The notes below the pieces were generated by a model. That model was not told where the DNA came from. It did no database searches and saw only the letters and a program-made list of their open reading frames with translations. Both the position numbers and the translations under genes were made by a program. Of a DNA stretch of 64,000 nucleotides, positions 2,704 through 55,170 are shown piece by piece (positions within the stretch are counted from its first letter, which is position 1; each line of letters starts with the position of its first letter). The stretch spans positions 10,679-74,678 of the forward strand of contig MNWP01000006.1 in assembly GCA_001872575.1 (NCBI GenBank), given 5' to 3'. The stretch comes from Candidatus Peregrinibacteria bacterium CG1_02_54_53 (GTDB lineage Bacteria > Patescibacteriota > Gracilibacteria > Peribacterales > Peribacteraceae).

Positions 2704-2789
2704 ATCCTGCCCTCGGCCCTGAGAGGGCTCGGGCCCTCGAACGGGAGCGAAGCCGAAGGGTCGAAGATCCTGAGCGAAGCCGAAGGATT
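2704..2789. repeat. Nested REP-like TGAG-hairpin-CGAA palindromes
   Basis: ccctgagagggctcgggccctcgaacggg, gagcgaagccgaaggg and atcctgagcgaagccgaaggat. Confidence 0.75.
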
Positions 2790-2874
2790 GGTGGCAATGA
2801 GAGGAGTGCGTGGCATACGGGAAGTGTAGCAGACAGCTTTCTCCTGAGGCCAAGCCGCGCTACCATCCAAGCGT

Positions 2875-27064: not shown

Positions 27065-27079
27065 TTGACCTGTTTTCTG

Positions 27080-27107
27080 TTGCTCCCATCGGGCGCATTG
27101 GTATGCT
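27080..27107 (+). promoter_or_regulatory. Putative sigma70 promoter of tRNA-Leu
   Basis: TTGCTC-16 nt-TATGCT with an extended TG, 15 nt upstream of the tRNA. Confidence 0.35.
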
Positions 27108-27118
27108 GCTCTTAAGCC

Positions 27119-28846
27119 TCATGCCGTGGTGGCGGAATTGGTAGACGCGCTAGCTTGAGGGGCTAGTGTCCGTTCTAGGACATGGGAGTTCGAGTCTCCC
27201 CCACGGCACCAAAGTTTCAGAACAGGCGAAAAATGAGCCTCCGCCTGTTTTTCGTCATGTTCTATGGCATCGGAGACTGTTTCTAACCGCATGTTTTGCC
27301 GAGCGAAGATCGCCTTGGCATCAAAGATAGTGGCAAACGGCTCTGCCAAGCTGAAAGTCAGCTTTCTGTCTTTGAGTTCTAACCGTTGTCCGAGCAGACC
27401 GAGAATCTCAATCTTCACTTTCCGTGAACTGGTTGCATATTTCTCTTTGAGTTTCTGCGTGATGCTGAGCGCAGTGATGATCTCCTGTGTCCACTGTGAG
27501 GCATTGGCATCAAAGTCTTGAATGAGCGCTGCTTGGTGCTTCTTGTCCTTCTCCATCTGTTCCAGCTTCGGCTTGAACGTTTCTTCGGGCAGTGCGGTTG
27601 CTTCATCCAATTGTCTGTCCACCAATCTGTCTATCTTGCTCACAAGCCCCTTGTAGTCCTCTTGGTACTTCCTGAGGGTCTGCCTATGCTGATGCTTCCT
27701 GTCCGTCTGTGTCGCTCTGAGCTTCCTGAGTGTCCATTTCAACAGTGGCTCAGGAACATTCACAGTATCAACAACGGTAGCCAATTGCCGTTCAAGGTCG
27801 GGCTCCGTGGTGGAGCCCGACTGTTTGCACTGGCAACCCTTGCTGCGCTTTGAGCAGCGGTAGTACCTATACTCTCTCGTTTTGCCTTCTTGCTTGATGT
27901 ACTTCCTCTTCACATCCACGATGATCTTGCAGTTGCACTTGCCACAACACTCGCCGCAGTGGATGAGCCTGGAATAGGGAACCTCATTTTTGTGTGGTCG
28001 AGGTCTGCCTTTTCTCCCAAGTATTTCCTGCGCCTGATCGTATTCTGCAATGGAAATCATGGGTTTGTGCAGCCCTTGGCAGATTTCCCCATCCCACACA
28101 AACTCACCGTAGTAGAAAGGATTGGTGAAGACTTGGTAGAGAGTATTCCTGCTGAGCGGCCTTGACCCTTTTTTGCGCGAACCGAGAATAGTGAGTTTGA
28201 GTTTCTTCGTTGCATACGCAGTGATCTCAGGAACGGTCTTCGTTCCTGTGAGAAGCAAGTCCCAGCATGTTCGGACTTTCTCAAACCTTTCTGGGTCTAC
28301 AAACACCGCCCGTTCACCTTTGAGACCGTGGTAGTCGGGCAAGTAACCGATTGGAGAAACGCCGGGCTTCCAGCCCATCTTTGCTTTTTGCTTCATGCCT
28401 CGCTTCACATCCTTACCAAGGTCTATGGAGTACTGCGTTGCCATGCCGAACTCCAAGAGCATCATCAAGATGTTGTCACCGGGGAGATAGGTACGCTCTG
28501 GCGTGATGATGGCCTTGATGATTCCTTCTTGCAGCATCCACTGTATTTCGCCAGCCTCAATGGAGTTTCTAGCGAGTCGGTTGAGCTTCCAGCAGTAGAG
28601 CACCTCGATGATTCCCGCGAGGAAATCTTTGATCATCTGCTTATATTCATCTCGTTTACCGGGTTGCTTCGCTGACTTCTCCTCCGTGTACTTTTTGACG
28701 AGAGTATCTCCGGTTCGCTGGAGGATTTTCATGTTTTCCTCCTCCTGCCCCTCGGTGGAGAGGATTTGTTTCTCATCTCCTTCGGAGCTTTTACGGCAGT
28801 ACATCCCTGCCTTTCGGGATGCTTGGAATGTTGAGAACATGGTCAT
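27119..28846 (-). CDS. Large serine recombinase (integrase); 3' end runs antisense through the tRNA
   Basis: YCRKSS catalytic motif, WKLNRLARN, PIGY, NPFYYG, HKPMIS recombinase domain, Cys-rich Zn ribbon, coiled coil. Confidence 0.95.
   Translation of the reverse strand: MTMFSTFQASRKAGMYCRKSSEGDEKQILSTEGQEEENMKILQRTGDTLVKKYTEEKSAKQPGKRDEYKQMIKDFLAGIIEVLYCWKLNRLARNSIEAGEIQWMLQEGIIKAIITPERTYLPGDNILMMLLEFGMATQYSIDLGKDVKRGMKQKAKMGWKPGVSPIGYLPDYHGLKGERAVFVDPERFEKVRTCWDLLLTGTKTVPEITAYATKKLKLTILGSRKKGSRPLSRNTLYQVFTNPFYYGEFVWDGEICQGLHKPMISIAEYDQAQEILGRKGRPRPHKNEVPYSRLIHCGECCGKCNCKIIVDVKRKYIKQEGKTREYRYYRCSKRSKGCQCKQSGSTTEPDLERQLATVVDTVNVPEPLLKWTLRKLRATQTDRKHQHRQTLRKYQEDYKGLVSKIDRLVDRQLDEATALPEETFKPKLEQMEKDKKHQAALIQDFDANASQWTQEIITALSITQKLKEKYATSSRKVKIEILGLLGQRLELKDRKLTFSLAEPFATIFDAKAIFARQNMRLETVSDAIEHDEKQAEAHFSPVLKLWCRGGDSNSHVLERTLAPQASASTNSATTA
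27123..27211 (+). tRNA. tRNA-Leu (anticodon GAG), CCA encoded
   Basis: Acceptor stem gccgtgg/ccacggc, D-loop aattggtag, anticodon arm ctagc-ttGAGgg-gctag, long variable arm, T-loop gttcgag. Confidence 0.96.
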
Positions 28847-28868
28847 GGGGGGTAGTGATGTAGAAATG

Positions 28869-28980
28869 CCCAAAGAAGGCAGTCCTGGGACTCACATCAG
28901 CCAGAAGCCTCTGTGCAGGACTGCCATCTTTGGGGGCAGCAAAACACTGACTTCTGACGCGGTGATGTGAGTCCGCAGGA
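28869..28980 (-). promoter_or_regulatory. Structured leader with two interleaved stems upstream of the recombinase
   Basis: 28869-28887 pairs with 28916-28934 (18/19); 28888-28899 pairs with 28963-28974 (12/12). Confidence 0.65.
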
Positions 28981-28981
28981 A

Positions 28982-30235
28982 TCATAGCACAGGCGAGGGA
29001 AGAATGAGAGAGCGAAACTTGGGGTGTGGTTCGTATATCCACGTTTTCCCGTCAATATCCTTCACCCGTTGCAAAACACCGAGATAGACCAACTGGTCTA
29101 GGTGACGTTTCACGGTCTTGTAGTTTTTATCCAGGATGTCCGAGCCTTCCTTTGCGGTCACCTTTGATTCCGCATGGAAGACACTCAGTGCCTCTGCACG
29201 TTGCACTGGCATTGAAGATAGAGCCACTCGTTTGGCAGTAAGGAACTCCTGCTGCGTCACCTCTTCCTTGCCTTTGAGTATGGCAAGAGAACGACAGAGT
29301 GCTTTGAGTTGATGCAGCGCACGGAACGGTTCTTCTTTCTGTATTTCCTCGACCTCCTCAAATGTCTTCACTTCACCCTCTTCCGTTTCAAATTGTTGAG
29401 TGCGTGTACGCACCTCTCCACGGGCTCTTGCGACCAGTTCGGCAAGGAGGTTGAGTTGCCTCCGAATCTCCTCTGCTACTGGCTGCAACTGCACTCGGTA
29501 TTTACGGATTCCTCCACAAAGTGAAGTGATATAATCGGATGCAGTCTGCGATGCGGCAGTAATGCGCTCTTTGAGGTCTTCTGACCAAGCAATTCCAAAA
29601 CACTCTTCACGCTGCTCATCATTCAACTCTGAGACACGGATGGTGAGGAAACGAGCGCCCACTTGATTCATGTACCTTTGCCTCTGGCTGAGACCCATCG
29701 GAGTAACACAGCCGATGTGTGAAAAGGCAGCTTCATAGCGAATCGTGCCACGGGCTCCACTGTGTTTGGAAAAATTGCCATCGTAGATACTGACCAGATC
29801 GCTGAGAAGTTGTTTCACCGTCTCCTCACTGCGCCCGAAAAATGAGGTGTAGTCCTTCACGATGAAACACTTGCCATCGAGTTTCGGCAGCAAATCCTGG
29901 GGCTTTTCCTTGTTACTGAGTCCACTGATGAAAGGATTGGTGGTCAGCACGTCAATCATCACCGTGTCCACTGCCTTCGCAAGGAGCGTGACAAGTTGCG
30001 TCTTATTGGACGAAGGATTGCCGACCAGCATGATCCATATAGGGTTACGCTTCTCTATCTCCTTGCTAATGTAGGCGGCAAGTACGACCTCAACCAAGTC
30101 ATCATCCAGGAGACCGATTGTGCGTGTGCGTTCCAGCACATCCTCCAAGAGGAGGGGCGGGGTAGTGCCGCCCTTAGGAGTTTCTGTCCTTTGCGTTGGC
30201 AATGGTGAACTACCTATGGTCTGCGACTCTGACAT
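28982..30235 (-). CDS. MCM-like AAA+ ATPase/helicase with C-terminal wHTH
   Basis: Walker A-like GNPSSNKT, IVKD, IYDG..KHSG, GARF arginine-finger region, terminal KNYKTVKRHLDQLVYLGVL. Confidence 0.7.
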   Translation of the reverse strand: MSESQTIGSSPLPTQRTETPKGGTTPPLLLEDVLERTRTIGLLDDDLVEVVLAAYISKEIEKRNPIWIMLVGNPSSNKTQLVTLLAKAVDTVMIDVLTTNPFISGLSNKEKPQDLLPKLDGKCFIVKDYTSFFGRSEETVKQLLSDLVSIYDGNFSKHSGARGTIRYEAAFSHIGCVTPMGLSQRQRYMNQVGARFLTIRVSELNDEQREECFGIAWSEDLKERITAASQTASDYITSLCGGIRKYRVQLQPVAEEIRRQLNLLAELVARARGEVRTRTQQFETEEGEVKTFEEVEEIQKEEPFRALHQLKALCRSLAILKGKEEVTQQEFLTAKRVALSSMPVQRAEALSVFHAESKVTAKEGSDILDKNYKTVKRHLDQLVYLGVLQRVKDIDGKTWIYEPHPKFRSLILPSPVL

Positions 30236-30375
30236 TGAAGGAGTTGGGAAAGGGGAACGAGTTTCCATCTCTTGAATCGAGGGCTGGTTGCACCCGTGTA
30301 CGCTTCCGTCCATGTCAGTTCTTCGTCAAGGACAAGGACTTTTGGCTCTATGGTGTCTGAGCTAAAATGGGGCAT
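30214..30375 (-). CDS. Possible small hypothetical protein (53 aa)
   Basis: MPHFSSDTIEPKVLVLDEELTW... fills a gap in the co-directional operon. Confidence 0.3.
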   Translation of the reverse strand: MPHFSSDTIEPKVLVLDEELTWTEAYTGATSPRFKRWKLVPLSQLLQCQSRRP

Positions 30376-30430
30376 GTTCAATAGGGAAAAGAATCAAAGA
30401 TGCTAACTCCATCGGGGTTCTTTTCCTGTG

Positions 30431-30595
30431 CTAAGGAGGCTCTTCGTGATCGGGAATAGAGGGGTCAATCGCAAACTGCACCAACGCAATGAGCTTGGTT
30501 GCATAAGTCCTCGCCTGATCGTCGGTGATCTGCTTACCCGTGGCTTGTAACCAGGCCTCCTTGAAACTGCCGATGTCTGTATCGGTCAGGTTCAT
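30431..30595 (-). CDS. Small hypothetical protein (54 aa), not in the ORF track
   Basis: MNLTDTDIGSFKEAWLQATGKQITDDQARTYATKLIALVQFA...; ATGA coupling to the upstream gene. Confidence 0.7.
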   Translation of the reverse strand: MNLTDTDIGSFKEAWLQATGKQITDDQARTYATKLIALVQFAIDPSIPDHEEPP

Positions 30596-30837
30596 GGCTG
30601 AGACCAGAGAAGGGATTTGAGATGCTTGTGTGATGCCAGCAGACGAGAAGGCACCATTGACACCTCCCTTCCGCTTGCGAAAATCTGCAACAGCTTTTGA
30701 ATGTCTGCCGTATGCTCAAACTGAAACTCACTCCTCCTTTCATCAATCCTTTCAATCTTTACCAGTGGGATTCCTGCTGCATGGAGGAACGATGCCTGTG
30801 GTAAATCTGACGTATTGTACGTCTCATGTGTACTCAT
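30592..30837 (-). CDS. DUF5659-like small protein
   Basis: YNTSDLPQASFL...FQFE...HKHLKSLL pattern. Confidence 0.7.
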   Translation of the reverse strand: MSTHETYNTSDLPQASFLHAAGIPLVKIERIDERRSEFQFEHTADIQKLLQIFASGREVSMVPSRLLASHKHLKSLLWSQP

Positions 30838-30882
30838 GCCCGGCAGCATGAGCGGGAAACTTTTTGACCGAGAAAGAACCTT

Positions 30883-31641
30883 CTAGGGAATCTTTTTGAC
30901 CTCGATTCCGATACCCTCCCTGAAAGATATCCACTCCTCTTTGAGGTTCCTCAATGGAACATCAGAAAAACGGGAAACCAATTCAAGAAGTTTCTTCACA
31001 TCGTCTTTGGTCACATGTATTCGCATATCTTTTCGCAGATTGAGTTTCGATGTGACGTAATCATCCAGCTCTCGTTGCGTTTGATGTCCTTTGTCGCAAT
31101 GTTCCCAACAGAACTCCCAAATATATCGTCTTTTGGCCTTATTCAATGTTTGTCCGTTCTCTTCTTCTCCCTCCTTCCATATTCGATATGTTCGGAAATT
31201 AGTAATGCTATTACCAACTCGGAAAAAATTATCGTCATTATTTGCGGTTTCCTTACCCTTGCCCTGTGTTTGAAGCTGCTGAGATTGCTCTGTTCCGAGT
31301 CTATAACAAGTACTCAGATAATCACGGTAGCGAGTGAAGAACTCCTTTCTGCCCTCTCGTTGGTGCTTCTGTATGTCAGCTTCAATTGCGTCTGCTTTTG
31401 GTTCGGGCAAGATTACATCTCTCACAGATTGCAAATTAGGATGCCTGTAATCCTCTTCAAAAGTGAAACCCAAAAGCTCTACGAAGTCTTTTGGCACAGG
31501 AACAATCTCATTCGCATATCGTAGAAATATTGTGACCCCATCAAGCCAACTCCTCTCCTCCAAAGAACCTCTCTGCAAAGAATCCACTTGTGCAGCAAGT
31601 GCATCCAGCTCAGCAATAATCTGGTCTTTGTTCATGCTCAT
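30883..31641 (-). CDS. Hypothetical protein
   Basis: About 250-aa ORF co-directional with the element core genes. Confidence 0.7.
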   Translation of the reverse strand: MSMNKDQIIAELDALAAQVDSLQRGSLEERSWLDGVTIFLRYANEIVPVPKDFVELLGFTFEEDYRHPNLQSVRDVILPEPKADAIEADIQKHQREGRKEFFTRYRDYLSTCYRLGTEQSQQLQTQGKGKETANNDDNFFRVGNSITNFRTYRIWKEGEEENGQTLNKAKRRYIWEFCWEHCDKGHQTQRELDDYVTSKLNLRKDMRIHVTKDDVKKLLELVSRFSDVPLRNLKEEWISFREGIGIEVKKIP

Positions 31642-31676
31642 AATGCTCAAATCCTAGCCCATTGGTTCAGAAGAGA

Positions 31677-31964
31677 CTACATCTGTTCCTGTGAAACTTT
31701 TGCAGAGCTTGCGTACATCAGACCCAAGCAATTGCGGCATTTGAAATGCCCGAAGTCGGTGCTGTATAGGGACTCAAATAGTTCCTGGCAGTCTGCACAC
31801 AGAAAGAAATACCGATAACCATTCTTCAGGTTCGTGACTCGACCAACCACCTTGATAGCCTGTGAGCCAACCTGCAACACAGCACCTATTGCCTGGTTGG
31901 GAATGGCAGCCCTCACATCACCGATATGCAGCCTGTCACACTGTTCCAGGATGGGCTTTCTCAT
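31677..31964 (-). CDS. Small zinc-finger protein
   Basis: GYRYFFLCADC...LY...FKCRNCLGLMYAS (two CxxC). Confidence 0.72.
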   Translation of the reverse strand: MRKPILEQCDRLHIGDVRAAIPNQAIGAVLQVGSQAIKVVGRVTNLKNGYRYFFLCADCQELFESLYSTDFGHFKCRNCLGLMYASSAKVSQEQM

Positions 31965-32553
31965 GGTTGGATTGAGTAGGTGGAATACCCTGGTTGATCT
32001 GCATGTTCTGCGCCACAATTGCATTTTTTGCCCTCACCTGAATCTGTGGCATGGAGAGATTTTGGAGTGCCTGTGCTAGCCGAATGATCTGATCGTTGGA
32101 GCTTTCCATTCCCTTCCGAACTTCTGCCAAGTACTTCGTTCTTTCTGGGCTACAATCGAAAGCAAGGCCTCCCTCCTCTTGCTTATACTTGATTGCTGCA
32201 AACATACGTTCGTATGACCAGGCCTGGTTCCAAGCAGAGACAAGACGATGGATAAGGAGCTTTTTCTGCGGTGTATCGGAACCGAATTGATCTTCCAACT
32301 CATTGTAGATTCGCTCTATGCCATTCTTCATGTCTGCATCGGCAAGAGACATGGGAAGCTGCGGACTGTTGACGGAAGCATAGGCAAGGAGAGATGTTTG
32401 CAATTCTTGGTATTTCTTCTCCTCTTCTTTGGTGCGCTTACCCTTGTCGTGCAACTGGAAAAAAGTCTCTCTCTGCACACGATCTTGGGATTGGAGTTTG
32501 GACTCCTTCTTCTGCAACTGCTCACCTTTGACGAGTGCAAGTGTCGAAGACAT
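31936..32553 (-). CDS. Hypothetical helical protein of the element core
   Basis: 205 aa, helical, Q/N-rich tail; first gene of the leftward operon. Confidence 0.72.
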   Translation of the reverse strand: MSSTLALVKGEQLQKKESKLQSQDRVQRETFFQLHDKGKRTKEEEKKYQELQTSLLAYASVNSPQLPMSLADADMKNGIERIYNELEDQFGSDTPQKKLLIHRLVSAWNQAWSYERMFAAIKYKQEEGGLAFDCSPERTKYLAEVRKGMESSNDQIIRLAQALQNLSMPQIQVRAKNAIVAQNMQINQGIPPTQSNHEKAHPGTV

Positions 32554-32670
32554 GCGTAAATTGTATCTAAATCCTTAGGAGACCCTTCTCATGGACAGAA
32601 AGTCCTAGGAGAGAGAAGGCAATTCCTTTCGGCTTCAATACCGAGCCCCAAGAGACGTTCCATCAGTACA

Positions 32671-32702
32671 TGGTAACTTCGCGCTTTGCGCGAAGGTTAC
32701 CA
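32671..32702. promoter_or_regulatory. Strong hairpin in the divergent intergenic region
   Basis: tggtaacttcgcgc-ttt-gcgcgaaggttacca, 14 bp with one bulge. Confidence 0.55.
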
Positions 32703-32765
32703 GAAGAGTGAATGGTCTATCGAACCGCTCTCTTATCAAATCTGATCTGATAGACTGTACAACGA

Positions 32766-33755
32766 GTGAGTAGCGCACTGAAAATTGTTGGCTTGGTGAT
32801 CCGTTGGCCTCTCAGCGTTTTCCTGCTCCTCCTGAGCGTAACTGGCGTGATTACCGGGGATGTCATGGCAGGAATCGGTATTGCACTCATGGGGGCGGTG
32901 CTCTTGCCAGTGCTTCGACAGGTTGGGGGGATCAAGCTCACACCTTGGGTGCGTGTCGGTGTCGTTGCCGTGGGATTCATCGTTTTCGCCATCGGAGTTC
33001 CACGAAAGAGTTCATTGCCCACTCCGGTTGTTGAGACAGAGAGCATGTCATCCGCCACGTTCTCCGGCGGATCGCAGGGGAGCGTCGGTGAGTCGCAGCA
33101 AGTCTCTCAGACGGCGGAAGTTGTCTCCGTCATAGACGGTGACACCATCAGAGTGAAACTTGCCGATGGGAAGGAGCAGAAGGTGCGTGTCATCGGGCTC
33201 GATGCGCCGGAAGTAAGCCCCTTACAATGCTTCGGCAAGGAATCATCGAATCATCTCTCTTCGTTCATCGCAGGAAAGGGCGTGACGCTCGAAAGCGAAC
33301 CTCAGGATGACCGGGACATCTACGGTCGGCTTCTGCGCTATATCTCGTTCAATGGACAGGATATCGGCGCTGCGATGATTCGTGACGGCTATGCCGAGAG
33401 CTATCGCAAGTACCCGCATCCGCGCATTGAGTCCTACAACTCCCTTGAGGCGAGCGCCAAGGAGCGCAAGGCGGGTCTGTGGAGCGCCTGTGCGGCTCCG
33501 GTGGCCGTATCGAGCAAAGCTGCCGTGGCGACACCCCTCACTCAGCCGACGAGTCCGCAGCCCCAAGCGCAAACAGGAAATGGGGAGTGCGTCATCAAGG
33601 GAAATGTGAATGCCAAGAAAGATAGGATTTATCACCTTCCCGGTTGCGGGTCATACACACAAACGCAGATCAGACCGGGGGAAGGAGATAGATGGTTCTG
33701 TACAGAAGCGGAGGCGCAAGCGGCGGGGTTCCGAAAGGCTGGGAATTGTCGGTAG
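32766..33755 (+). CDS. Membrane-anchored thermonuclease (SNase) with C-terminal IKGN/Ada-like domain
   Basis: VIDGDT, VRVIGLDAPE, DIYGRLLRY, KAGLW; CVIKGN..IYHLPG..WFCTEAEAQAAGFR. Confidence 0.92.
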   Translation: MSSALKIVGLVIRWPLSVFLLLLSVTGVITGDVMAGIGIALMGAVLLPVLRQVGGIKLTPWVRVGVVAVGFIVFAIGVPRKSSLPTPVVETESMSSATFSGGSQGSVGESQQVSQTAEVVSVIDGDTIRVKLADGKEQKVRVIGLDAPEVSPLQCFGKESSNHLSSFIAGKGVTLESEPQDDRDIYGRLLRYISFNGQDIGAAMIRDGYAESYRKYPHPRIESYNSLEASAKERKAGLWSACAAPVAVSSKAAVATPLTQPTSPQPQAQTGNGECVIKGNVNAKKDRIYHLPGCGSYTQTQIRPGEGDRWFCTEAEAQAAGFRKAGNCR

Positions 33756-33757
33756 GT

Positions 33758-34351
33758 TTACTGGCTCAGGTATTCCTCTGCCTCTTCTTCGCTCATCAGA
33801 TGCATGAAGTCCTCCTTCCGTGGCGGTCGCATAGGCCTCTCCGTGGCCTTCAGACCGTTCTTCAGGACGTGGAGGAGTAATTCCCCGTACTGACCCCTTG
33901 AAACGTCCTTGTCCGCAATGAGGATGCCCTCCACGTCCCTCCATGTGGCGAATGGGAACGGGACTTCCGAGAGCAAGGATCGCATGTCCTGAAGGAAGAC
34001 GGAGGCACAGTTCTCAAAGAGTCCGTCACCACCGCGTTTTCCTCTGAGCAGAACCCAAGGATTCGCATGTGTACCCGTGATCCCGTATTCCACTTTCGGG
34101 AACATCGTGAGGTATCGAAAGTCGGTATAACCACCGGAAAAATGTGTGAATATCACTTCGTCCATGAGTACGCCGAGGGCGCAGAGGCACACAAAGAGAG
34201 AGCGGTATTTTCCATCTGCGACACTCGGAACGCGTTCTGCGAAGTCTTGAACATGGAAGTAGTCCTCATCCCCAAAATTGTGAGAGTACCGCCTGACGGC
34301 CTCTTGCAGGTCGAGGGGGAAGCGCCGATGGTAGTAGGTTTCTAGGGTCAT
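33758..34351 (-). CDS. Hypothetical protein
   Basis: 197-aa ORF with no recognised motif. Confidence 0.65.
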   Translation of the reverse strand: MTLETYYHRRFPLDLQEAVRRYSHNFGDEDYFHVQDFAERVPSVADGKYRSLFVCLCALGVLMDEVIFTHFSGGYTDFRYLTMFPKVEYGITGTHANPWVLLRGKRGGDGLFENCASVFLQDMRSLLSEVPFPFATWRDVEGILIADKDVSRGQYGELLLHVLKNGLKATERPMRPPRKEDFMHLMSEEEAEEYLSQ

Positions 34352-34387
34352 CAGGTGTCAGTACGAAAGATGCATCATCGCCGGATT

Positions 34388-35287
34388 CTACGGTAGCCAT
34401 CCGCGCAGCCGAGCGGCAATCTTCGCTGCTAACTTCACTGTCTCCGGTGTGATGTAGCCGAGTCTCACATTGCGTTCGTAGAAGCCAATGATGTAGTAGG
34501 TCATACGAGAGGTGTGGTATCCGTAATACAGTGGAGAACCAAAGCCCAAGTACACAGCCACAAGGTCAGTCAGTATCTCATTCTGCGCCGGATCGGGGGC
34601 ATCCATTCTATGCTCATGCATGTAGTGATGTGTGGATTCGTGAGCGAGGATTGCGACGATGTTCTCGATTCTAAACTCCTTGTTTCGTCGTATGCAGATT
34701 TCCCTTTGCCATTGGTTCTTTGCCTGATAAGAACCTGCGTGATTCTCATTATCATTCCAATCCGTCACACGGACTTTCACAGGAACGTGGATGCCGAGAA
34801 AGGCAGCCATGTGTTCAGCAATGCGCTGAAGTGAAGGCTCCGCAAAGTCTGAGTCCTGTGCCTCGGTTTCCATCCATCGTGGAAGTTCGTACAGACCGTT
34901 GACTGATGTCGGGGGCTGCGGTGTTTGCTCATGTATTCGCTTCAACAGAGCTTCAATTTCTTCCTGTGGAATCTGTTTTCGCTTTCCCGAAAATAATTCA
35001 TCAAGACCGGGTTGCCCCGGAAACATCGCTTGAAAGACCTTTGAGAAGTCCTGGCTCGGATCGTATGCCCAACTTCGACGCATATCGTCTACAGCCCTCA
35101 TAAGACCGCGCCAGATATTCAATAATCTTGATCGAAAACGGCGGAAGTGATTCTCGAAAGAATAGACGCGCAAGTTTCGCCTAAAGTTGTAAGCGGCCTC
35201 CTTGAGTGGCTCCGACATTGTGCTGAGCAGCTTCCTCATTCGCTGCTCACTTCTTTCCGCCGATTCCGACTCTTTGGAAGACTTCAT
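34388..35287 (-). CDS. HExxH zinc metallopeptidase-like protein
   Basis: HAGSY, ILAHESTHHY, NEILTDLVAVYLGFG. Confidence 0.75.
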   Translation of the reverse strand: MKSSKESESAERSEQRMRKLLSTMSEPLKEAAYNFRRNLRVYSFENHFRRFRSRLLNIWRGLMRAVDDMRRSWAYDPSQDFSKVFQAMFPGQPGLDELFSGKRKQIPQEEIEALLKRIHEQTPQPPTSVNGLYELPRWMETEAQDSDFAEPSLQRIAEHMAAFLGIHVPVKVRVTDWNDNENHAGSYQAKNQWQREICIRRNKEFRIENIVAILAHESTHHYMHEHRMDAPDPAQNEILTDLVAVYLGFGSPLYYGYHTSRMTYYIIGFYERNVRLGYITPETVKLAAKIAARLRGWLP

Positions 35288-35303
35288 TGTTGAAGGAAAT
35301 GGC

Positions 35304-36509
35304 TCAATAACAAACCGCCGGAGCCGCACGGAACTCCTTTTCGATTTCCGACACATCATGCTCGATTCGTTCGTAATCGAATCGCCAAGGATCGCGTTGA
35401 ACATTCAACGTGTTATCAAACTGTTCCGACCACTCCGACCAGTAATAATCCGTAAGGGGTATCTCGGTGGGATTGATGGCTCGGTATATGGCGAGGTAAT
35501 CGTTGAACAGTGGGATGAACCGTCCCTCAATCTCATCGAGGATGGTGATGCAACGAGACCCGTTCTCCTGCCGAGCCAGTTCTTGGGCTTGCGCGACCAT
35601 CCTCTCATGGAGCTTGTCCCATGCGGCGATCTTGCCCTTCATGCGTTCGAGCAGAAGCGGATCAGGTGAACATGTCTGAGATTGAGGTTCTGTTCCATCT
35701 GGGAAGAGGCAGGAAGCGTTTTTGAGTGTGCAGGTGACGCTTTGTTGCCCATCAATGCACAGAGAAACAGGTTCACATTCCCAGTCATACTGTGTACACC
35801 GATAGTAAGTTGTTCCTGAGGTCTTCGACGATGTAGAGGGAGCAGAAGTCCCGCGCTGGGCAGGAGCAGTCGGCAGTTGATAAGCCTTCCCTTCCGCAGC
35901 ACAGTTCGGATACACCAAACCCCTTTTCAGTCGGTCGAGCATCACCACCATCTCCGCGCGGTTCATATTGTTGGAGGGGCGCACTTTTTCTGTCCCAGCA
36001 TCACCTTGCAAGATGCAGTTCGAGGCGGCGAGGCGTATAGCCTCCGTGAACCACTGACCCTCAGGGTTATCTTGGAAGGCAGGGGCTTCTCCTTGGAGAC
36101 CGATGCCGAAGGCACGTTGGAGGATCGCAGAGGCCTCAGCACGATTGATAGGGCTTTCGGGCTTCGCAAGACAAGGGTGAGTACCCAGGCAGCTTCCTGC
36201 CCCCTTCATCCATCCTGAGGCTGCTGCTTGCTCAAAGGGAGCGTAGTAGACAGCGTTCGGGCTCACGTCATCGAAGCTCTGTCCCGTAGAAGCCACGGTG
36301 ACCCCGCCTTGCAGTTTGACGATGAGTTCGATGAACTCCGCTCGCGTGGCGTTATCTCCCGGCCTGAAGGCCGTGTTGCCGGGGAAGTATCCGGCATCCG
36401 TGAATGCGGAGACCGTATGGGCATACCACGCGCCCTGAGACACGTCCGGCGGGGCGGCGAAGACCGTGAAGGGAAGAAGACCAATAATGAGAAGAAGTGC
36501 AGTTCTCAT
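35304..36509 (-). CDS. Secreted SLH (S-layer homology) domain protein
   Basis: Signal peptide; three SLH repeats (TRAEF, NRAEA, NRAEM); Cys-rich C-terminal part. Confidence 0.9.
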   Translation of the reverse strand: MRTALLLIIGLLPFTVFAAPPDVSQGAWYAHTVSAFTDAGYFPGNTAFRPGDNATRAEFIELIVKLQGGVTVASTGQSFDDVSPNAVYYAPFEQAAASGWMKGAGSCLGTHPCLAKPESPINRAEASAILQRAFGIGLQGEAPAFQDNPEGQWFTEAIRLAASNCILQGDAGTEKVRPSNNMNRAEMVVMLDRLKRGLVYPNCAAEGKAYQLPTAPAQRGTSAPSTSSKTSGTTYYRCTQYDWECEPVSLCIDGQQSVTCTLKNASCLFPDGTEPQSQTCSPDPLLLERMKGKIAAWDKLHERMVAQAQELARQENGSRCITILDEIEGRFIPLFNDYLAIYRAINPTEIPLTDYYWSEWSEQFDNTLNVQRDPWRFDYERIEHDVSEIEKEFRAAPAVCY

Positions 36510-36540
36510 GGAAAGAGGGGAAGTGTAGGTGGATATACCC

Positions 36541-36672
36541 AAGCGGGCATCCAACCTGGCACTCCTACTGCACCGCTCCTTGCGGAGATCGGACGGTAGG
36601 CAGGCGGATGCCCGCTAAGACCGTCGTTTCTCCGTGGGGAAAATCCCCAAGGGTGCGATGCCGTAGGAGTGC
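36541..36672 (-). promoter_or_regulatory. Structured leader (multi-stem hairpin plus pseudoknot) upstream of the SLH gene
   Basis: agcgggcatcc/ggatgcccgct, gcactcctac/gtaggagtgc, gacggt/accgtc, cggaga/tctccg, gggga-aaa-tcccc. Confidence 0.65.
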
Positions 36673-36732
36673 GTCAGTATGTTACTACTGCTTCACAGGC
36701 TTTGCACTGCATCAATCCTGTAAAATGAAGGC

Positions 36733-37630
36733 ATGTGTGCGATCACCATCCGTCATCACTACCTCCCACAGTGCTACCTCAGAGGATTTCTTGATGAAGA
36801 GGGATACCTGCATGTCTACGACAAACAAGAGCAACGCTTTTTCTCTACCAAAGGAACCAATGACGTTTTTCAAGAGAAGCACCGGAACTCGATACAATCT
36901 CCCCTCACAGGAGAAAGGCATGATGTGTTTGAGGGGCTCTATTCAGACTTTGATTCTCTGATGGCACCACTGTTGAAGAAGATCATTGATTCCAAGTCTA
37001 CCGAACCTCCACCTCTCGACTTGGAAGAAAGATGGAAAATGATGCTCTGTCTGGGCTTTCTTTACTGGCGTGTTCCTTCCAGGGATGCACAGGGCAAGGA
37101 ACTGGTAAACAGGTTTGGATTCAGAAGTGACTTCTTCAACATTCACGACAAAAAAACAGGTAAGCCCATTTCCGATGAAGAGATGCGGAAAATTGCAGGT
37201 TTTGACGGCATGGACACCGCCTACAAGATGGGGCTTTCTTTTGCACCGTTTTACAGCGCAGAAAGCTACAAAACTGCACAGCATTGGAAGTTCTTGTACC
37301 AAGACCCAGGTTTTCACATCACTGGTGACAACCCGATACTGTGTCGAAAAGACGCGCAGGATTTCAAAGAGATTCTTGATGAGTTCATTTTTCCCGTCTC
37401 ATCAGGGATGAGTTATCATCAGCAACAAACATTACCCAAACCAAAACCCTGGGCGCGATTTCTGCTTCAAGTTGAGTGTGGCGATCATTGAGCAAGCTCA
37501 TCGTTTTGTCTGCGCCAGGAACATGGATTATTTGAAACTATTGGTCAATTTGCATCAACGGTCTCATCAGGTATTTTCAAAGGCAGGAACAAATGTGATG
37601 GAGTACCTATACGATGAGAAGAGGTTTTGA
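36733..37630 (+). pseudogene. DUF4238 domain protein with an apparent frameshift near 37410
   Basis: RHHYLPQCYLRGF, WRVP, ITGDNP. A shifted frame continues VIISNKH...VAIIEQAHRFVC to a stop at 37630. Confidence 0.72.
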
Positions 37631-37664
37631 GTCGGAATGCTCCACTGTTCCGATCTTACATTTC

Positions 37665-38162
37665 ATGGCTATACTGGATGTGATGAAAAAAATCATTGAG
37701 ATTTTGGGCAAAGTAGTAGTCGCAGTGGTCAGCATCGGTTTTTTTGCGGCATGGTTGGCACTGCCAATCTACAATGATTACTCATGGGATGATGCGGTCA
37801 TTCGGCAAAGAGAGACAGAAGGATGGGCAGTTGCATCCACCCTTGGCAATGTAATTGACATAACTGCACCGTGGACAATCTTCAAACAACCGATTGACCA
37901 GATCGCCTTTGTAAAACCCGATGAGATTAGCATTGCGCCAACGGGATTCATCTTCATAGATGTTCTGTGGGTACGACGCGGGATGAGAAAAGAGACTGAG
38001 AGCGAAACATCCTTTACTGCCTTTGATTGTGAACGGGGCATGAGTGCGTATGTGGATTTGGATGAAAAAGATTTGGGCAAAGCATTGCAGTTTGAGTGGC
38101 GCAGTTTCAATGAAGGTCTGCCAGGTCACGATGTGATTTCTTTTGTTTGCAGCCATGTATAG
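37665..38162 (+). CDS. Hypothetical membrane-anchored protein
   Basis: N-terminal TM, then a soluble domain with two Cys. Confidence 0.7.
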   Translation: MAILDVMKKIIEILGKVVVAVVSIGFFAAWLALPIYNDYSWDDAVIRQRETEGWAVASTLGNVIDITAPWTIFKQPIDQIAFVKPDEISIAPTGFIFIDVLWVRRGMRKETESETSFTAFDCERGMSAYVDLDEKDLGKALQFEWRSFNEGLPGHDVISFVCSHV

Positions 38163-38409
38163 AGTCCTCGCCATTCTTTGCAAAATCTTCTACATCATCT
38201 GGGGTGCGGGTTATGCTTTCCTTTTTCTTTTTTCGCTCTACGTTCGTTTCGTAGCCGAGCCAACAATCACTCACGGAATTGGGGCGGTTCTGTCAGCAAA
38301 CGATCCCCTCAGTACCGCGCAAACTATTACCTCCATTCTTCTCCTACTACCTGCGATACTGGCGTATCAGGGTGAGCAATTTTTCACAAAAAAAGCCAAT
38401 GGTAGATGA
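38155..38409 (+). CDS. Small two-TM membrane protein
   Basis: Two hydrophobic segments; overlaps both neighbours in operon fashion. Confidence 0.6.
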   Translation: MYRVLAILCKIFYIIWGAGYAFLFLFSLYVRFVAEPTITHGIGAVLSANDPLSTAQTITSILLLLPAILAYQGEQFFTKKANGR

Positions 38410-38989
38410 ACTGAAACAGTTACTCCCTCCTCCTGGGTGTTGGCTGTTTGGGAAAGATGCCCCAAAGCCTGATGAGAACGGGAAGTTTCTTGAAATGTTC
38501 AAGGAACCAGAGGAGGCAAAGATCGTGATTGAGAAATACCAAGGCAGCCATGCCAATGCCGTTGATCTCCTGGGAGAGGCAAAACTGCTTTACCAGAATA
38601 AACGATATGCCAGAGCGGTTGCGTTGGGTATCTCAGCCTGGGAAGAGTTGGGCAAGTCACAGATGGCTGCTGACTACTACACGGGCGTGATACCTGAACC
38701 TGTATATAAGAAGGCATTTACGGATCACAGAGCCAAAACCTCATATCTGCACCGAACAGCAGTGGTGAAATCTACTGGCAAGATGGGCGTTGTCTATGAC
38801 AAGCAATCAGGAGAAGCCCTGGAAAAAATACGGCAGGACGCACTGTACATTTCCGATTCAAGCACCCCAGACAAATACACCAAGGAAGATGCTGAGTTCA
38901 TCATGCAAAGAGTCTTTGAGCATCTGCACTTCATTCACTACGCAGAGGAATTGAATGATCGCATCGGGTCAAAAGGGATATTCAAATAG
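38399..38989 (+). CDS. AbiV-family abortive infection protein
   Basis: NAVDLLGEAKLL..YARAVALGISAWEELGK, DHRAK, RQDALY. Confidence 0.85.
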   Translation: MVDELKQLLPPPGCWLFGKDAPKPDENGKFLEMFKEPEEAKIVIEKYQGSHANAVDLLGEAKLLYQNKRYARAVALGISAWEELGKSQMAADYYTGVIPEPVYKKAFTDHRAKTSYLHRTAVVKSTGKMGVVYDKQSGEALEKIRQDALYISDSSTPDKYTKEDAEFIMQRVFEHLHFIHYAEELNDRIGSKGIFK

Positions 38990-39080
38990 CTCTCTATGGA
39001 CACCAACTCCTAGGTCAGGTTGAGGCTTTGGAACCTACTCAGAGAGCCCACCACGGTTCTAACTTCGTACAGTCTGGCGC

Positions 39081-39612
39081 ACCATTCGTCCCGCAATTGC
39101 GGGACTCATGGCAAGCCATATGTTGCATGTCTACATCCTTGAACTGGAAAATGACTCCTATTATGTCGGTCATACCGACAACCTACGACGAAGACTGATG
39201 GAGCATGAACAAGGAATTGCATGTTCACATACGAAAAAATATCCGATGAAGCAACTCCTTTGGTCAGAGTCACAGCCAAATCGGAATGCTGCTCGCATGA
39301 GGGAAATTGAGATCAAGGGTTGGCGACGCAAAAAGAAGGAACGTCTCTGGCAGAAAGTGAGCTTGCCCTGACGAGAGAAGCGAGGAAGGGTCTCCCCCAC
39401 GGCACCATTCGTCGGCCCTTTGGGCCTCCTCATGGTGAACCATTCTACTGCTTCTCTTGAATAAGCCCGATATTTCCTACAAGCAGCCGAGGCGAATGAC
39501 AGTGAGCGTAGCGAAGCGAAGCCGGGCATATCGATTTCAACTGAAACCAGATAGTAAGCTGTTCTATCCTCGTTACCATTCGTCCCGCAATTGCGGGACT
39601 CATGGCAAGCCA
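39081..39612. repeat. Three CCA-TTCG-hairpin-CTCA-TGG units plus a duplicated tRNA 3' end
   Basis: accattcgtcccgcaattgcgggactcatggcaagcca at 39081 and 39575, a variant at 39404; gtctcccccacggcacca at 39390-39407 is identical to 27194-27211. Confidence 0.88.
39120..39371 (+). CDS. Stand-alone GIY-YIG nuclease
   Basis: HVYIL, YYVGHTDNLRRRLMEH, AARMREIEIKGW. Confidence 0.92.
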   Translation: MLHVYILELENDSYYVGHTDNLRRRLMEHEQGIACSHTKKYPMKQLLWSESQPNRNAARMREIEIKGWRRKKKERLWQKVSLP

Positions 39613-39645
39613 CATGTTTCATGTTTACATTCATTCACTCAATAG
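39602..39645 (+). pseudogene. 5' remnant of a second GIY-YIG gene
   Basis: atggcaagccacatgtttcatgtttacatt (MASHMFHVYI) parallels the start at 39108 and is cut off at the convergent gene. Confidence 0.6.
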
Positions 39646-41021
39646 CTCAGATCATCCAATAACAGGTACTGCTCGCCGTTCTGTTCCGCAATTTCTTTGC
39701 GTTCGCGGTATTTCTCAATGAGAGGAGCAGACAACTCAAGCACGCGCAGCAGAGGCTCCACATTTTCTCTATATTGCGCAGAGATAGCTGGAGGACGGAT
39801 TTCAAAGGGAATGGTTTCAATAGGAGTGAGTGTGCTGTCTGGGTTGAGTTGCAGAAGGTGGAAGTCCCCGGATTGCATTGGATGTAATTGATTTTCGTAC
39901 CAGAAGGATCGCAGTGCTTCTCGAATACCCGTTTGTTCAATGGCATTGAAGGACTCTACCTTAATGACACGCCTAAAGTGCAGGAAAGCAGCATCAGGAT
40001 CTTCGAAGAGGAATGCAAATATTCGGGTATTCTGCTCGCGTGGGCCGGTCATTGCCTCAATGGTTTGCACAGGGAATCCTTGTTTTTGTTTCAAGAGTGC
40101 GATGGAACCGAAAGGAATATTGGTCTCTCCGTTGAAAAAGCTCTGTTGCAGGATGATTTTTCCCGACAGTGTGTGATAGGCATGATCGGTAAAATTCGAC
40201 GAGAGTATTTCGTAGGCTCCGGTACGCAGGTGATACCGCACTGTCCCCCAGTGATTGCGATCAAGTACACTGAAGAGAAGCGTCTGATTGTCGATGAAAA
40301 ACGGCGAAAAGTGGAGTTGCTCAGAATCGAATGAGGGGGCAGAAAGTGTGCGACTGTCCCAGCTGAGCGTATCAATAAGTGTAATGCGTGAAAGCGTGTT
40401 ATGGCTTAAGAGAGCAAGGGACATTTCTGTCGGAGAAAGAACGATTGTGTGTTGCATAGGGATACCCAACCTTTCAAAAAGTTGTTCTGGCGAATACCAT
40501 TCTTCCCTCGCCGGAAGGGAGATATTTTCGATTTCTCCACATTCAGAATATCGAACATGAAGATGTGGATGATCCTCTTCGTCCGTAAGGAAGTAGACAA
40601 AGTTGGTATCACGACTGAGGTACACGAGTGGACTATTCTCTTCGTCCGTAAGCAGCTTGTAGTTGTACGGAGATCCCATATCTTGTACATGTGCCTGGTT
40701 GCCAGAACCGATGAGCGTTGCTCTCGGCGAAACAAGGCGAAGTTCTGTGGAATACTCGTTGCTACTTTGCAGTATTTTTCTTGAGTACACCAGTCCTGTT
40801 CTAAACGTATGAGTGGCATAGACGTCCTGGTCAGTGCCTTTCCGAAAGAGCAATGCCTGCAATGTTACTTTAGCCCGGATTTCATTTGGATCGTTGACAG
40901 GCTGCATCAGTGATGAAATCAGAACGAACGTTGAATATGCGAAAGCGCACAAAAGAACAACACATACGATCACATGTTTCCAGGTGCGGAACACGGCCAA
41001 GATGTATGGGGGCACACGCAT
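39639..41021 (-). CDS. Hypothetical membrane-anchored beta-rich protein
   Basis: N-terminal TM; 460 aa. Confidence 0.75.
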   Translation of the reverse strand: MRVPPYILAVFRTWKHVIVCVVLLCAFAYSTFVLISSLMQPVNDPNEIRAKVTLQALLFRKGTDQDVYATHTFRTGLVYSRKILQSSNEYSTELRLVSPRATLIGSGNQAHVQDMGSPYNYKLLTDEENSPLVYLSRDTNFVYFLTDEEDHPHLHVRYSECGEIENISLPAREEWYSPEQLFERLGIPMQHTIVLSPTEMSLALLSHNTLSRITLIDTLSWDSRTLSAPSFDSEQLHFSPFFIDNQTLLFSVLDRNHWGTVRYHLRTGAYEILSSNFTDHAYHTLSGKIILQQSFFNGETNIPFGSIALLKQKQGFPVQTIEAMTGPREQNTRIFAFLFEDPDAAFLHFRRVIKVESFNAIEQTGIREALRSFWYENQLHPMQSGDFHLLQLNPDSTLTPIETIPFEIRPPAISAQYRENVEPLLRVLELSAPLIEKYRERKEIAEQNGEQYLLLDDLSY

Positions 41022-46337: not shown

Positions 46338-46422
46338 GGGTTTTGATGTGAGTGTCTTCTATCAGATTCTACACCATTTTGCGCTTTAATGCAATATTCC
46401 TCAAAGGAGCCGCACGGTGACA

Positions 46423-50199: not shown

Positions 50200-50315
50200 C
50201 AGATTACCAGTAACTTCTAATAGTTACCATTTATGGACTGATTGAACGCATTTTCCCTCATCACAACGAGACGGTAAACCCTCGCATTCTCTCAACCAAT
50301 AACACGGTAGTGAGG

Positions 50316-52793: not shown

Positions 52794-52853
52794 CGGGTAC
52801 AGTCTCCCGCAGAACAGATGAATTGTCAAGTTATCTTCACATAGCCAATGCTA

Positions 52854-55170
<2,317 letters not shown>

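Follow-up and report, generated by a model that had tools for sequence, protein, structure and literature searches.

We analysed a stretch of 64,000 nt from Candidatus Peregrinibacteria bacterium CG1_02_54_53 (GCA_001872575.1, contig MNWP01000006.1, positions 10,679-74,678 of the forward strand), referred to below as the window. It holds a small GIY-YIG gene framed by two hairpin modules and placed downstream of tRNA-Leu(GAG), the single tRNA detected in the window by ARAGORN. The locus is probably a stack of small selfish cassettes at a tRNA 3′ end, later split by an unrelated integrase island. With similar confidence, we regard the cassette as a nuclease-linked mobile element aimed at tRNA gene ends and sitting here on older remnants. 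Support for this reading comes, among other things, from the relatives of the cassette, which were found behind tRNAs of seven kinds, each as a rule closed by a copy of the end of its own tRNA. Such small GIY-YIG cassettes at the ends of bacterial tRNA genes were not found described in the literature searched, from which supplements and subscription journals were left out.

The cassette stack behind tRNA-Leu(GAG)

The features of the locus, in window coordinates, are as follows.

27123..27211, + strand: intact tRNA-Leu(GAG), host and target of the cassette (ARAGORN); its last 18 nt recur at 39390-39407
27212..39078, no strand: large-serine-recombinase island of 11.9 kb, between the tRNA CCA and the cassette and outside the latter (Pfam, junctions)
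27119..28873, - strand: large serine recombinase, 584 codons as integrated (Pfam Resolvase, E 1.7e-14; Recombinase, E 1.5e-6)
39079..39084, + strand: GCACCA, repeat of the last 6 nt of the tRNA and common core of the right junction (attR) of the island (sequence)
39082..39117, + strand: unit 1, 5′ hairpin module (hairpin unit 39082-39111; folding, module comparison)
39120..39371, + strand: single-domain GIY-YIG gene, 83 aa (Pfam PF01541, E 4.6e-13)
39366..39390, + strand: 3′ hairpin module CCCT-GA-(inner)-GA-AGGG (comparison across cassettes, folding)
39390..39407, + strand: exact copy of the last 18 nt of tRNA-Leu(GAG), from T-loop position ~59 to CCA (match length 18)
39405..39573, + strand: unit 2, gene-less "type B" leader (hairpin unit 39405-39435; alignment, folding)
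39576..39645, + strand: unit 3, remnant of an older type A cassette (hairpin unit 39576-39605; 65-nt repeat)

The type A cassette of the window extends from 39085 to 39407 (323-324 bp) and consists of a 5′ hairpin module, the 83-aa GIY-YIG gene, an inverted hairpin module that holds the stop codon, and the 18-nt copy of the tRNA end. The 5′ module starts exactly after the tRNA CCA and pairs with it. From 39085 on, one reads TTCG, a perfect hairpin of 6-7 bp and CTCATGG CAAGCC, after which comes the GIY-YIG open reading frame (ORF). In unit 1 the outer stem is CCAT/ATGG, followed inwards by a TC/TC internal loop and by an inner stem TCCCGC/GCGGGA with an AATT loop, CAAGCC coming next; on the bottom strand the same unit is CCAT-GA-(hairpin)-GA-ATGG. 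Read from its first ATG, the ORF covers 39108-39371 and encodes 87 aa, and from the second ATG, at 39120, which is the start used by the orthologs, 83 aa. Its TGA stop codon lies inside the 3′ module (CCCTGA..GAAGGG), directly upstream of which stands a degraded T-loop 5′ half, AGTGAG.

In unit 2 the inner stem, GGCCC/GGGCC, is followed by TGAACCAT and then by the motif GGCGAATGAC..TGAGCG (39491-39508), the unit having a 130-nt tail. By alignment, it is homologous to the leaders found before paralogous GIY-YIG genes behind tmRNA (C5) and behind tRNA-Leu(UAA) (C17). The order seen in the window, a type A cassette followed by a type B leader, recurs at locus L124. Unit 3 repeats the 5′ module of unit 1 without change, continues with 14 codons of the ORF (39602-39645), and is cut off where a convergent gene (39639-41021) ends; its inner stem is that of unit 1, the two units being 89% identical within a 65-nt repeat.

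An earlier note on this DNA had described three TTCG-hairpin-CTCATGG units, an 83-aa GIY-YIG gene, a copy of the tRNA 3′ end at 39390-39407, and a tRNA CCA running straight into TTCG once the island is taken out. This description was borne out in full: the three units are where it had placed them, the GIY-YIG gene has 83 aa when read from 39120, the copy is identical to the last 18 nt of tRNA-Leu(GAG), and removal of 27212-39078 restores the junction.

An Rfam scan of 38900-39800, with E up to 10, gave no match to ribozymes or tRNA-like elements, and consensus scans of 38800-39800 gave no promoter and no terminator. A hammerhead-like core, prompted by CUGA..GAA, was dropped, the NGA part of the consensus being absent and Rfam blank.

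Orthologous cassettes lie behind tRNAs of seven kinds

Relatives of the gene were taken from two sources. A species collection, with one genome per species, contained 111 stretches encoding a GIY-YIG relative; 80 loci were kept, 60 of which were scanned for tRNAs, and the closest homologs came from Peregrinibacteria or Peribacteria records. A family sample was made of 60 other genomes, each from a different genus, or 61 with the source genome (G000; 1.37 Mb, 42 contigs, 46 tRNA or tmRNA genes). GIY-YIG matches in this sample were accepted at E 1e-6 or better, and 29 loci were fetched. Three cassettes from the species collection, eight from the family sample and a second copy in genome G010 make up the 12 orthologous type A cassettes, from 11 genomes, considered below.

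All 12 (62-73% aa identity) have the same anatomy, and 11 of them lie directly behind a tRNA: tRNA-Leu(GAG), Leu(UAG), Leu(CAA) and Pro(GGG), two each, and tRNA-Leu(CAG), Pro(UGG) and Lys(UUU), one each. No integrase stands between these tRNAs and their cassettes, as anticipated by the earlier note, which had called the cassette integrase-free. The twelfth (L125) lies behind an island end and carries an 18-nt tRNA-Pro-like end. The common order is tRNA..NCCA, TTCG, a variable hairpin, CTCATGG CAAGCC, the ORF, (GGTTCGAG) CTTGCCC TGA, a small hairpin, GAAGG, and the 3′ end of the host tRNA. A perfect copy of the host's own tRNA end, 18-23 nt long, closes 11 of the 12 cassettes; of the 10 that were tabulated, 9 have a copy of 18 nt and the remaining one has 23 nt. 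Similarly, 3 of 4 gene-less units or second copies in the source genome match 18, 18 and 13 nt of the tRNA end.

The repeated piece does not begin with this copy. The host's own T-loop 5′ half (TTCGAG, TTCAAG, TTCGAA or TTCAA) is found directly upstream of the 3′ module, often together with a strand of the T stem. The duplicated tRNA piece thus really measures ~29 nt and reaches from the T arm as far as CCA, its T loop housing the 3′ module; at L128 and C20 the 3′ motif occupies other points of the T arm. The variable tail of the ORF, ..(G)SSLP followed by the stop, is a T-arm remnant and the 3′ motif in translation. The target duplication put forward in the earlier note thus holds as regards the host-specific copy, and fails as regards its length of 18 nt.

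Proximity to tRNAs is also seen when all loci are counted. Among the 60 scanned loci of the species collection, the three closest homologs (67-73% identity) have a same-strand tRNA 40-96 nt upstream, as does only one (L071) of the other 57. In the family sample, a GIY-YIG match was obtained in 46 of 60 genomes; among the 8 close orthologs, 7 have a tRNA 43-210 nt upstream, and 9 of the 21 distant paralogs have a tRNA or tmRNA at most 300 nt upstream. This makes 16 of the 29 fetched loci with a same-strand tRNA or tmRNA ending at most 300 nt upstream, for a chance estimate of ~1%. In the source genome, TTCG directly follows 10 of the 46 tRNA or tmRNA genes (chance estimate ~0.2), and 12 tblastn matches to the GIY-YIG protein were obtained, among them paralogs behind tmRNA (C5, directly), tRNA-Ser(UGA) (C15), tRNA-Leu(UAA) (C17) and tRNA-Gly(UCC) (C27). 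Another paralog is found in front of tRNA-Ile (C26), and one inside an insertion in a 23S rRNA gene (C42). The earlier note had proposed repeated insertion at tRNA ends, and had suggested looking elsewhere for tRNA-end fragments, TTCG-stem-CTCA and GIY-YIG genes together. The association was indeed found at other tRNAs and in other genomes, the ortholog sits at seven tRNA species, and stacks of full, gene-less and truncated units are common.

Signs of decay were observed as well: a lost stop codon (L130), a decayed tRNA-end copy in G010, and truncated ORF starts in the window and at C15.

Some of these loci deserve separate mention. In G010, the two cassettes, behind tRNA-Pro(GGG) (L123) and tRNA-Leu(UAG) (L194), share ~65% identity where they can be aligned, yet have nearly the same leader hairpin, a hint that hairpins are homogenised within a genome. 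The 23S rRNA insertion that holds a paralog (C42:2410-2616) has an 18-bp closing stem, a feature also of rRNA insertions in bacteria of the candidate phyla radiation. At C26:5400-6045, the paralog before tRNA-Ile(GAU) has upstream of it a copy of the 5′ half of this tRNA, broken in two places by GC-rich palindromes, and downstream of it another 5′ fragment, which makes it a 5′-side version of the cassette. The window itself holds a second GIY-YIG paralog (60473-60706, minus strand, 41% identity), which has no tRNA in its vicinity but is directly followed downstream by a CCCTGAGG..CGAAGGG hairpin, at ~60402.

Hairpin modules with fixed flanks and free stems

Among the 28 5′ modules collected, 24 are distinct. 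Their flanks, CCAT-TC..TC-ATGG, are fixed and their inner stems unrelated, in line with the fixed flanks and variable inner stem of the earlier note. Its claim that the tRNA CCA takes part in the outer stem was strengthened by covariation, since pairing is kept behind tRNA-Leu(CAA), where CCAC goes with GTGG, and behind tRNA-Ser, in another leader type, where GCCA goes with TGGC. The inner stems are strong (4-8 bp) in gene-bearing cassettes and degenerate in many gene-less units. Folded as DNA, unit 1 of the window reaches -10.5 kcal/mol, with a z of -4.18 on the top strand (0 of 200 shuffles as good) and of -3.84 on the bottom strand.

The 3′ modules are mostly of the form CCCT-GA-(hairpin)-GA-AGGG. 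The outer stem is closed in the fold of 19 of 20 distinct copies, and for 11 of the 20 no more than 5 of 200 shuffles fold equally well. The outer pair covaries here too: AGGG ends all 13 CCCT or CCCA forms, and AGGA ends 5 of the 7 TCCT forms. When reverse-complemented, the 5′ module (GGCTTG-CCAT-GA-(hairpin)-GA-ATGG) is the same motif as the 3′ end (GCTTG-CCCT-GA-(hairpin)-GA-AGGG). The two ends of the cassette are therefore inverted versions of one motif, with the target repeat outside, which is a transposon-like layout.

The pattern CCATTCG-N(4-34)-CTCATGGYRARCC occurs 16 times in the source genome and is present in 44 of the 61 family genomes, for 0 occurrences of the reversed pattern in the same 61. 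Among 32 modules from 30 sampled loci, 19 begin right at the CCA of a called tRNA or tmRNA. A GIY-YIG match, with a single query, was found downstream of 4 of the 32, so that gene-less units predominate. In genome G003 (L197-L200), four near-identical 33-nt solo 5′ modules follow tRNA-Val(GAC), tRNA-Pro(CGG), tRNA-Ile(GAU) and a tRNA-like end, with no gene, no tRNA-end copy and nothing else in common. Gene-less units behind tRNA-Met match the end of this tRNA over 11 nt only, and have a T stem that is different and self-consistent. A tRNA-like minihelix (acceptor and T arm) would fit these tRNA-Met units; as it does not fit the window cassette, it was not retained.

Other small palindromes were noticed. 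CCTGAGC-N-TCGAAGG hairpins are dispersed away from tRNAs (window 2718-2790; C5:16849, C7:29319, C8:12099), often within a longer stem GTGTCAC..GCGACAC and with (C)ATGGTTCG 10-20 nt later; they look like a separate family of tiny palindromes related to the end motif of the cassette. Other types of units also follow CCA (L096, L108, C19:81978; L117, L119, L127). One of them is CCGGCTTCG-hairpin-CTACGCCGTG, and another is a 110-nt unit starting with GAAT.. and ending in CCTGAGCG..GAAGG and a tRNA-end copy.

The GIY-YIG protein, its selection and an empty site

The protein is a single domain of 83-87 aa, matched by Pfam PF01541 at residues 7-77 (E 4.6e-13), with no other significant Pfam domain (T5orf172 is below cutoff), no PHROGs family, and sub-threshold matches only in NCBIfam. 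Its nearest sequence in the PDB is UPF0213 protein BH0048 (E 1.6e-8 with the single sequence, 1.6e-12 with a profile), and further profile matches are UPF0213 protein EF2693 (4.1e-9), then SLX1. The AlphaFold2 model (pLDDT 90.4, pTM 0.77) has the GIY-YIG alpha/beta fold, and Foldseek aligns it with 1zg2 (E 3.1e-5) and 1ywl, both UPF0213, then with HIGLE 7wme, Slx1 6seh, the UvrC N-domain 1yd6 and the I-TevI catalytic domain 1mk0. Residues Y5, Y14/Y15-V-G, R24, R25, E28, H29, E62 and E64 are invariant in 10 orthologs, and we take them to be the GIY-YIG catalytic set (GIY Tyr, YIG Tyr, Arg, His/Glu, metal-binding Glu). Sequence and fold thus assign the protein to the GIY-YIG superfamily, in a UPF0213/SLX1-like branch. 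That insertion proceeds through cutting by this nuclease, as supposed in the earlier note, is inferred. As the SLX1 and HIGLE entries are titled for the processing of branched DNA, a small enzyme of this branch acting on hairpins or extruded structures would be a reasonable proposal.

Among GIY-YIG orthologs, the median proportion of nonsynonymous differences (pN) is 0.23 and that of synonymous differences (pS) 0.81, with pN below pS in 55 of 55 pairs, indicating from these comparisons that the nuclease gene is under purifying selection.

The earlier note had also suggested setting occupied and empty loci side by side, and a syntenic empty site was found. In genome G031, homologs of the flanking genes (76% identity for the 453-aa upstream protein, 32% for the 460-aa convergent downstream protein) bracket a tRNA-Leu(GAG), with neither island nor cassette; the ~130 nt between the tRNA and the downstream gene hold only another small hairpin type. 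More generally, tRNA-Leu(GAG) loci of relatives are followed by a TTCG leader in 3 of 24 cases, by other repeat types in a few, and by unrelated sequence in most.

A possible mechanism

The free stems, fixed flanks and mirror layout of the modules point to one protein that would recognise either end as single-stranded or extruded DNA. A structure-specific nuclease devoid of a DNA-binding domain might act on the hairpin modules, on the T arm and CCA of single-stranded or extruded tRNA genes, or on both. A break would then arise in the T arm/CCA region of a tRNA gene and be repaired by copying an occupied locus, the shared T loop and NCCA serving as short homologies. The tRNA would be rebuilt intact, and a hairpin-plugged duplicate from T arm to CCA would stay behind. 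New arrivals would settle beside the tRNA and displace older units outward, which would explain the window order of full cassette, type B leader and truncated type A remnant. The stacks in the window and at L124, L126 and C15 fit arrival beside the tRNA; at L127 the type A cassette is the distal unit. Finally, the serine-recombinase island would have integrated at the last six bases of the tRNA.

Going one step further, the cassettes could form a distinct transposon-like class, in which the sole protein is an 83-aa structure-specific GIY-YIG nuclease, host repair replaces the transposase and the target is a structure; we put this forward tentatively, and think it somewhat doubtful. The ends of such an element would be inverted GA-zippered hairpins, GCTTG-CCNT-GA-(free stem)-GA-ANGG, on opposite strands. 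Its target would be not a sequence but the T-arm/NCCA end common to all tRNA and tmRNA genes, and gene-less hairpin units would be its non-autonomous riders. The T-arm/NCCA end does resemble the element hairpin, both having TTCGA beside a short stem.

Two other schemes were considered and set aside. Cut-and-paste with a tRNA 3′ end brought from the donor conflicts with the T arm of the tRNA-Met units, which is self-consistent but foreign. An 18-nt target duplication by staggered cuts is taken up in the next section.

Difficulties and alternative explanations

A number of observations weigh against the view that the locus is a stack of selfish cassettes. The evidence is of sequence and contains no observed cleavage, transcript or transposition event. 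As for the association with tRNAs, 13 of the 29 fetched GIY-YIG loci have no tRNA within 300 nt, and 13 of the 32 modules are not at a called tRNA end, many of these following tRNA-end-like copies. The copies themselves are not always as expected: the second G010 cassette (L194) has a decayed one, and the T arm of the tRNA-Met units differs from that of the resident tRNA. Folding is uneven. Unit 2 is moderately stable (-6.4 kcal/mol, z -1.62, 13 of 200 shuffles as good), and the 3′ module of the window is poorly paired: under DNA parameters 156 of 200 shuffles fold equally well, and under RNA parameters 9 of 200 do. The orthologs are old, with saturated synonymous sites, so that perfect tRNA copies could reflect constraint or gene conversion rather than recent insertion. 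Contigs from four groundwater DNA runs covering 26900-39900 gave the window arrangement only, with no joint skipping island or cassette, such contigs being unable to reveal rare variants. The identical solo hairpins at four sites in G003 suggest that the hairpin may spread without the gene.

The mechanism has its own difficulties. A simple 18-nt target duplication by staggered cuts leaves the internal, host-derived T-arm 5′ half unexplained. The repair scheme proposed above accounts neither for both host-specific pieces in a first insertion at a new tRNA species, nor for the spread of solo hairpins. Furthermore, the intact tRNA keeps its T loop, so an enzyme cutting T loops would keep cutting its own host.

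The alternative that fares best is a host-kept system similar to that of the Ssn nucleases, made of a single-stranded DNA (ssDNA) nuclease and recognition hairpins scattered in the genome, for example to modulate DNA uptake or recombination, with no gene moving by itself; hairpins would accumulate or serve at tRNA ends as trailers, terminators or processing sites. The purifying selection on the gene and the presence of 12 paralogs in the genome would suit such a system, as would the identical solo hairpins at four tRNAs and the CCTGAGC..TCGAAGG hairpins dispersed away from tRNAs. In the text consulted on Ssn, the genes of these 94-aa single-domain GIY-YIG ssDNA nucleases have hairpin repeats on both sides in 42% of homologs (PMC11893778). 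However, orthologs of the window gene are found at tRNA loci that differ between genomes, each time with a duplication of the tRNA in question, which implies that the gene itself relocates, and the truncated or stop-lost copies and the stacks resemble decay after invasion. Moreover, the published SRM consensus had no match beside the gene in 80 homolog loci, and the nearest solved relatives are UPF0213 proteins. We consider a purely host-kept system unlikely, noting that the two views are compatible and not mutually exclusive.

The stack could also have been produced passively, if short repeats of the tRNA end and palindromes had undergone slippage or unequal recombination, the nuclease gene being duplicated as a bystander. 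Tandem repeats of this general kind are known, E. coli tyrT being followed by repeats that contain the tRNA 3′ end, and some of our loci have the expected look: near-identical gene-less units stand in tandem behind tRNA-Met (two units), and leader and tRNA-end repeats lie on both sides of the ORF at L126 and C15. But slippage cannot move one ortholog to seven tRNA species with new host-specific copies, and it accounts neither for a 3′ hairpin fixed within the T loop nor for an occurrence in 44 of 61 genomes. Such an origin is very improbable.

The serine-recombinase island

The island that now separates the tRNA from the cassette carries, according to Pfam, an SLH-domain protein (35304-36554), a DUF4238 protein (36733-37491) and an AbiV-type HEPN protein (38279-38989). 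Its left junction is ACCA followed by AAGTTTCAG, and its right end is CTTCGTACAG followed by the 6-nt core GCACCA (39079-39084). An island-end motif of the CTTCGTACAG type is also present at the C20 island, at C3:199 and at L125, and precedes TTCG units at the last two. The C20 island (42502-53583, 11 kb), associated with tRNA-Pro(CGG) and a recombinase, ends in TTCGTACAGGGA and CGACCA, the last six bases of tRNA-Pro(CGG), and is followed by a type A TTCG unit ending in a tRNA-Pro end copy. The last 31 codons of the window recombinase run through the antisense of tRNA-Leu(GAG). In the source genome, 5 of 7 recombinase paralogs lie within ~180 nt of a tRNA 3′ end, and in relatives, 8 of 11 homolog loci have the C-terminal end of the recombinase turned towards a tRNA 3′ end or overlapping it (tRNA-Thr, tRNA-Cys, tRNA-Gly). 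We conclude that this recombinase family targets tRNA 3′ ends. A tblastn search of 29 tRNA-Leu loci of relatives gave no match to the recombinase, and one weak match (L103) to the GIY-YIG protein.

From the separate junction of the island it follows that the cassette was at the tRNA first, and that the island was inserted later at the boundary between the two. The cassette has a single ORF, of 83 aa, and no recombinase inside. The earlier note had named, among the findings that would refute it, that the 18-nt copy might simply be the attR of the island, which the island's own 6-nt core at 39079-39084 speaks against. That the copy is this attR and the GIY-YIG gene cargo at the right end of the island is hardly credible and largely refuted: the island does stand between tRNA and copy, hence is bracketed with the cassette by tRNA-end repeats, its recombinase family does target tRNA 3′ ends, and a tRNA-Trp island on C30 is bracketed by repeats of at least 24 nt, but 11 orthologous cassettes with a host-specific copy follow their tRNA immediately and without an intervening recombinase, the island shows a junction of its own (the GCACCA core behind CTTCGTACAG, as the C20 island ends in TTCGTACAGGGA and CGACCA), and three tRNA-end copies (full, 6 nt and 18 nt) require two events anyway.

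Islands of this family (window 27119-39084; C20:42502-53583, C39, C26, C17) enter tRNA genes at their last bases. Their recombinase ORF crosses the junction into tRNA antisense, so that it has 584 codons when integrated versus 566 with the island ends joined. A TTCG hairpin unit comes after the junction in all four right ends examined (window island, C20 island, C27 contig end, L125), which suggests that the attachment site may include this unit. An island type with a long tRNA repeat is found at C30:1592-8894, where at least the last 24 nt of tRNA-Trp are found again twice, at distances of 147 nt and 7.2 kb downstream, with another serine recombinase in the stretch thus bracketed.

Implications

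If correct, the reading of these loci as selfish cassettes would describe the smallest known type of autonomous selfish cassette (~320 bp, with one 83-aa nuclease), living on tRNA gene ends and resident in most sampled genomes of one whole family of ultra-small groundwater bacteria; on the bolder view of a transposon-like class, the tRNA genes of these bacteria would be the habitat of a nuclease-only mobile element. The selfish-cassette reading would account for many "orphan" GIY-YIG genes and for tRNA-end fragments that mislead predictors of islands and att sites. It would also reveal a natural nuclease that apparently recognises the shape of a nucleic acid rather than its sequence, and a route by which tRNA loci turn into landing pads, the serine-recombinase island having entered here at the same junction. 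A hairpin-guided, single-domain nuclease with a free stem sequence would be relevant to those who build ssDNA tools, as in the work on Ssn.

Comparison with known systems

The GIY-YIG enzyme SegB, from phages, cleaves tRNA genes internally, at RAWTSGAAC, and drives tandem amplification of the tRNA and a truncated segB through microhomology, according to the part of the source seen (PMC13096335). The reverse complement of this site would correspond to the T-loop coding sequence. As described in the same part of that source, SegB and other free-standing GIY-YIG homing genes of T-even phages have in common with the cassette a nuclease gene beside tRNA genes (PMC13096335). Both vary in presence between genomes, a hallmark of selfish nucleases; for the cassette, this is seen at seven tRNA species and at the empty site of G031. 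In contrast, SegB is a phage protein, and the cassette protein is found in bacterial chromosomes, with its 83-87 aa and single domain leaving no second domain to read a DNA sequence. Inverted hairpin modules and a host-specific tRNA-end copy characterise the cassette and are unreported at SegB loci in the portion of the literature seen. SegB is more than twice the length of the cassette protein and has a C-terminal DNA-binding part.

Ssn enzymes (cd10448, with NTS/SRM hairpin repeats) share with the cassette a ~90-aa single-domain GIY-YIG gene and flanking hairpins on both sides that are repeated elsewhere in the genome. In the text consulted, they bind the hairpin as ssDNA, cut a few nt upstream, need the sequence of the palindrome, and are described as serving the host by modulating transformation rather than as mobile cassettes (Chenal et al., Nat Commun 2025, PMC11893778); its main text does not mention tRNA. 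The inner stems of the cassette are free to vary, unlike the palindrome on which Ssn depends according to that text. A regular-expression search with the published SRM consensus had its sole window match at 3156, far from the cassette, and none beside the gene in the 80 homolog loci. If cutting of the Ssn kind applied here, the cut would fall near the junction between CCA and TTCG.

Integrase-mediated tRNA islands resemble the cassette in leaving the tRNA intact and in having an insert bounded by a direct repeat of the tRNA 3′ end, but the 324-bp cassette has no integrase, and the local serine-recombinase island uses a different, 6-nt junction. IS200/IS605 elements and miniature inverted-repeat transposable elements are tiny, with subterminal hairpins, a fixed short target and many gene-less derivatives, IS200/IS605 not being known to make a long target duplication. 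The cassette shares with them hairpins at both ends, a short fixed target (NCCA) and gene-less derivatives, and differs from IS200/IS605 by its long target duplication and the absence of an HUH transposase. To our knowledge, a GIY-YIG hydrolase cannot rejoin DNA by itself. Mitochondrial GIY-YIG ORFs, such as that of Allomyces atp6, duplicate the 3′ end of the invaded gene, giving a working and a displaced copy; unlike the cassette, they have protein-coding targets in fungal mitochondria, with neither hairpin modules nor tRNAs known to be involved. That the cassettes deserve a class of their own, as transposons with a nuclease only, we hold to be possible rather than probable. We file the cassette as a selfish nuclease gene with hairpin repeats, related to known kinds, the closest of which are phage SegB and the Ssn/SRM system.

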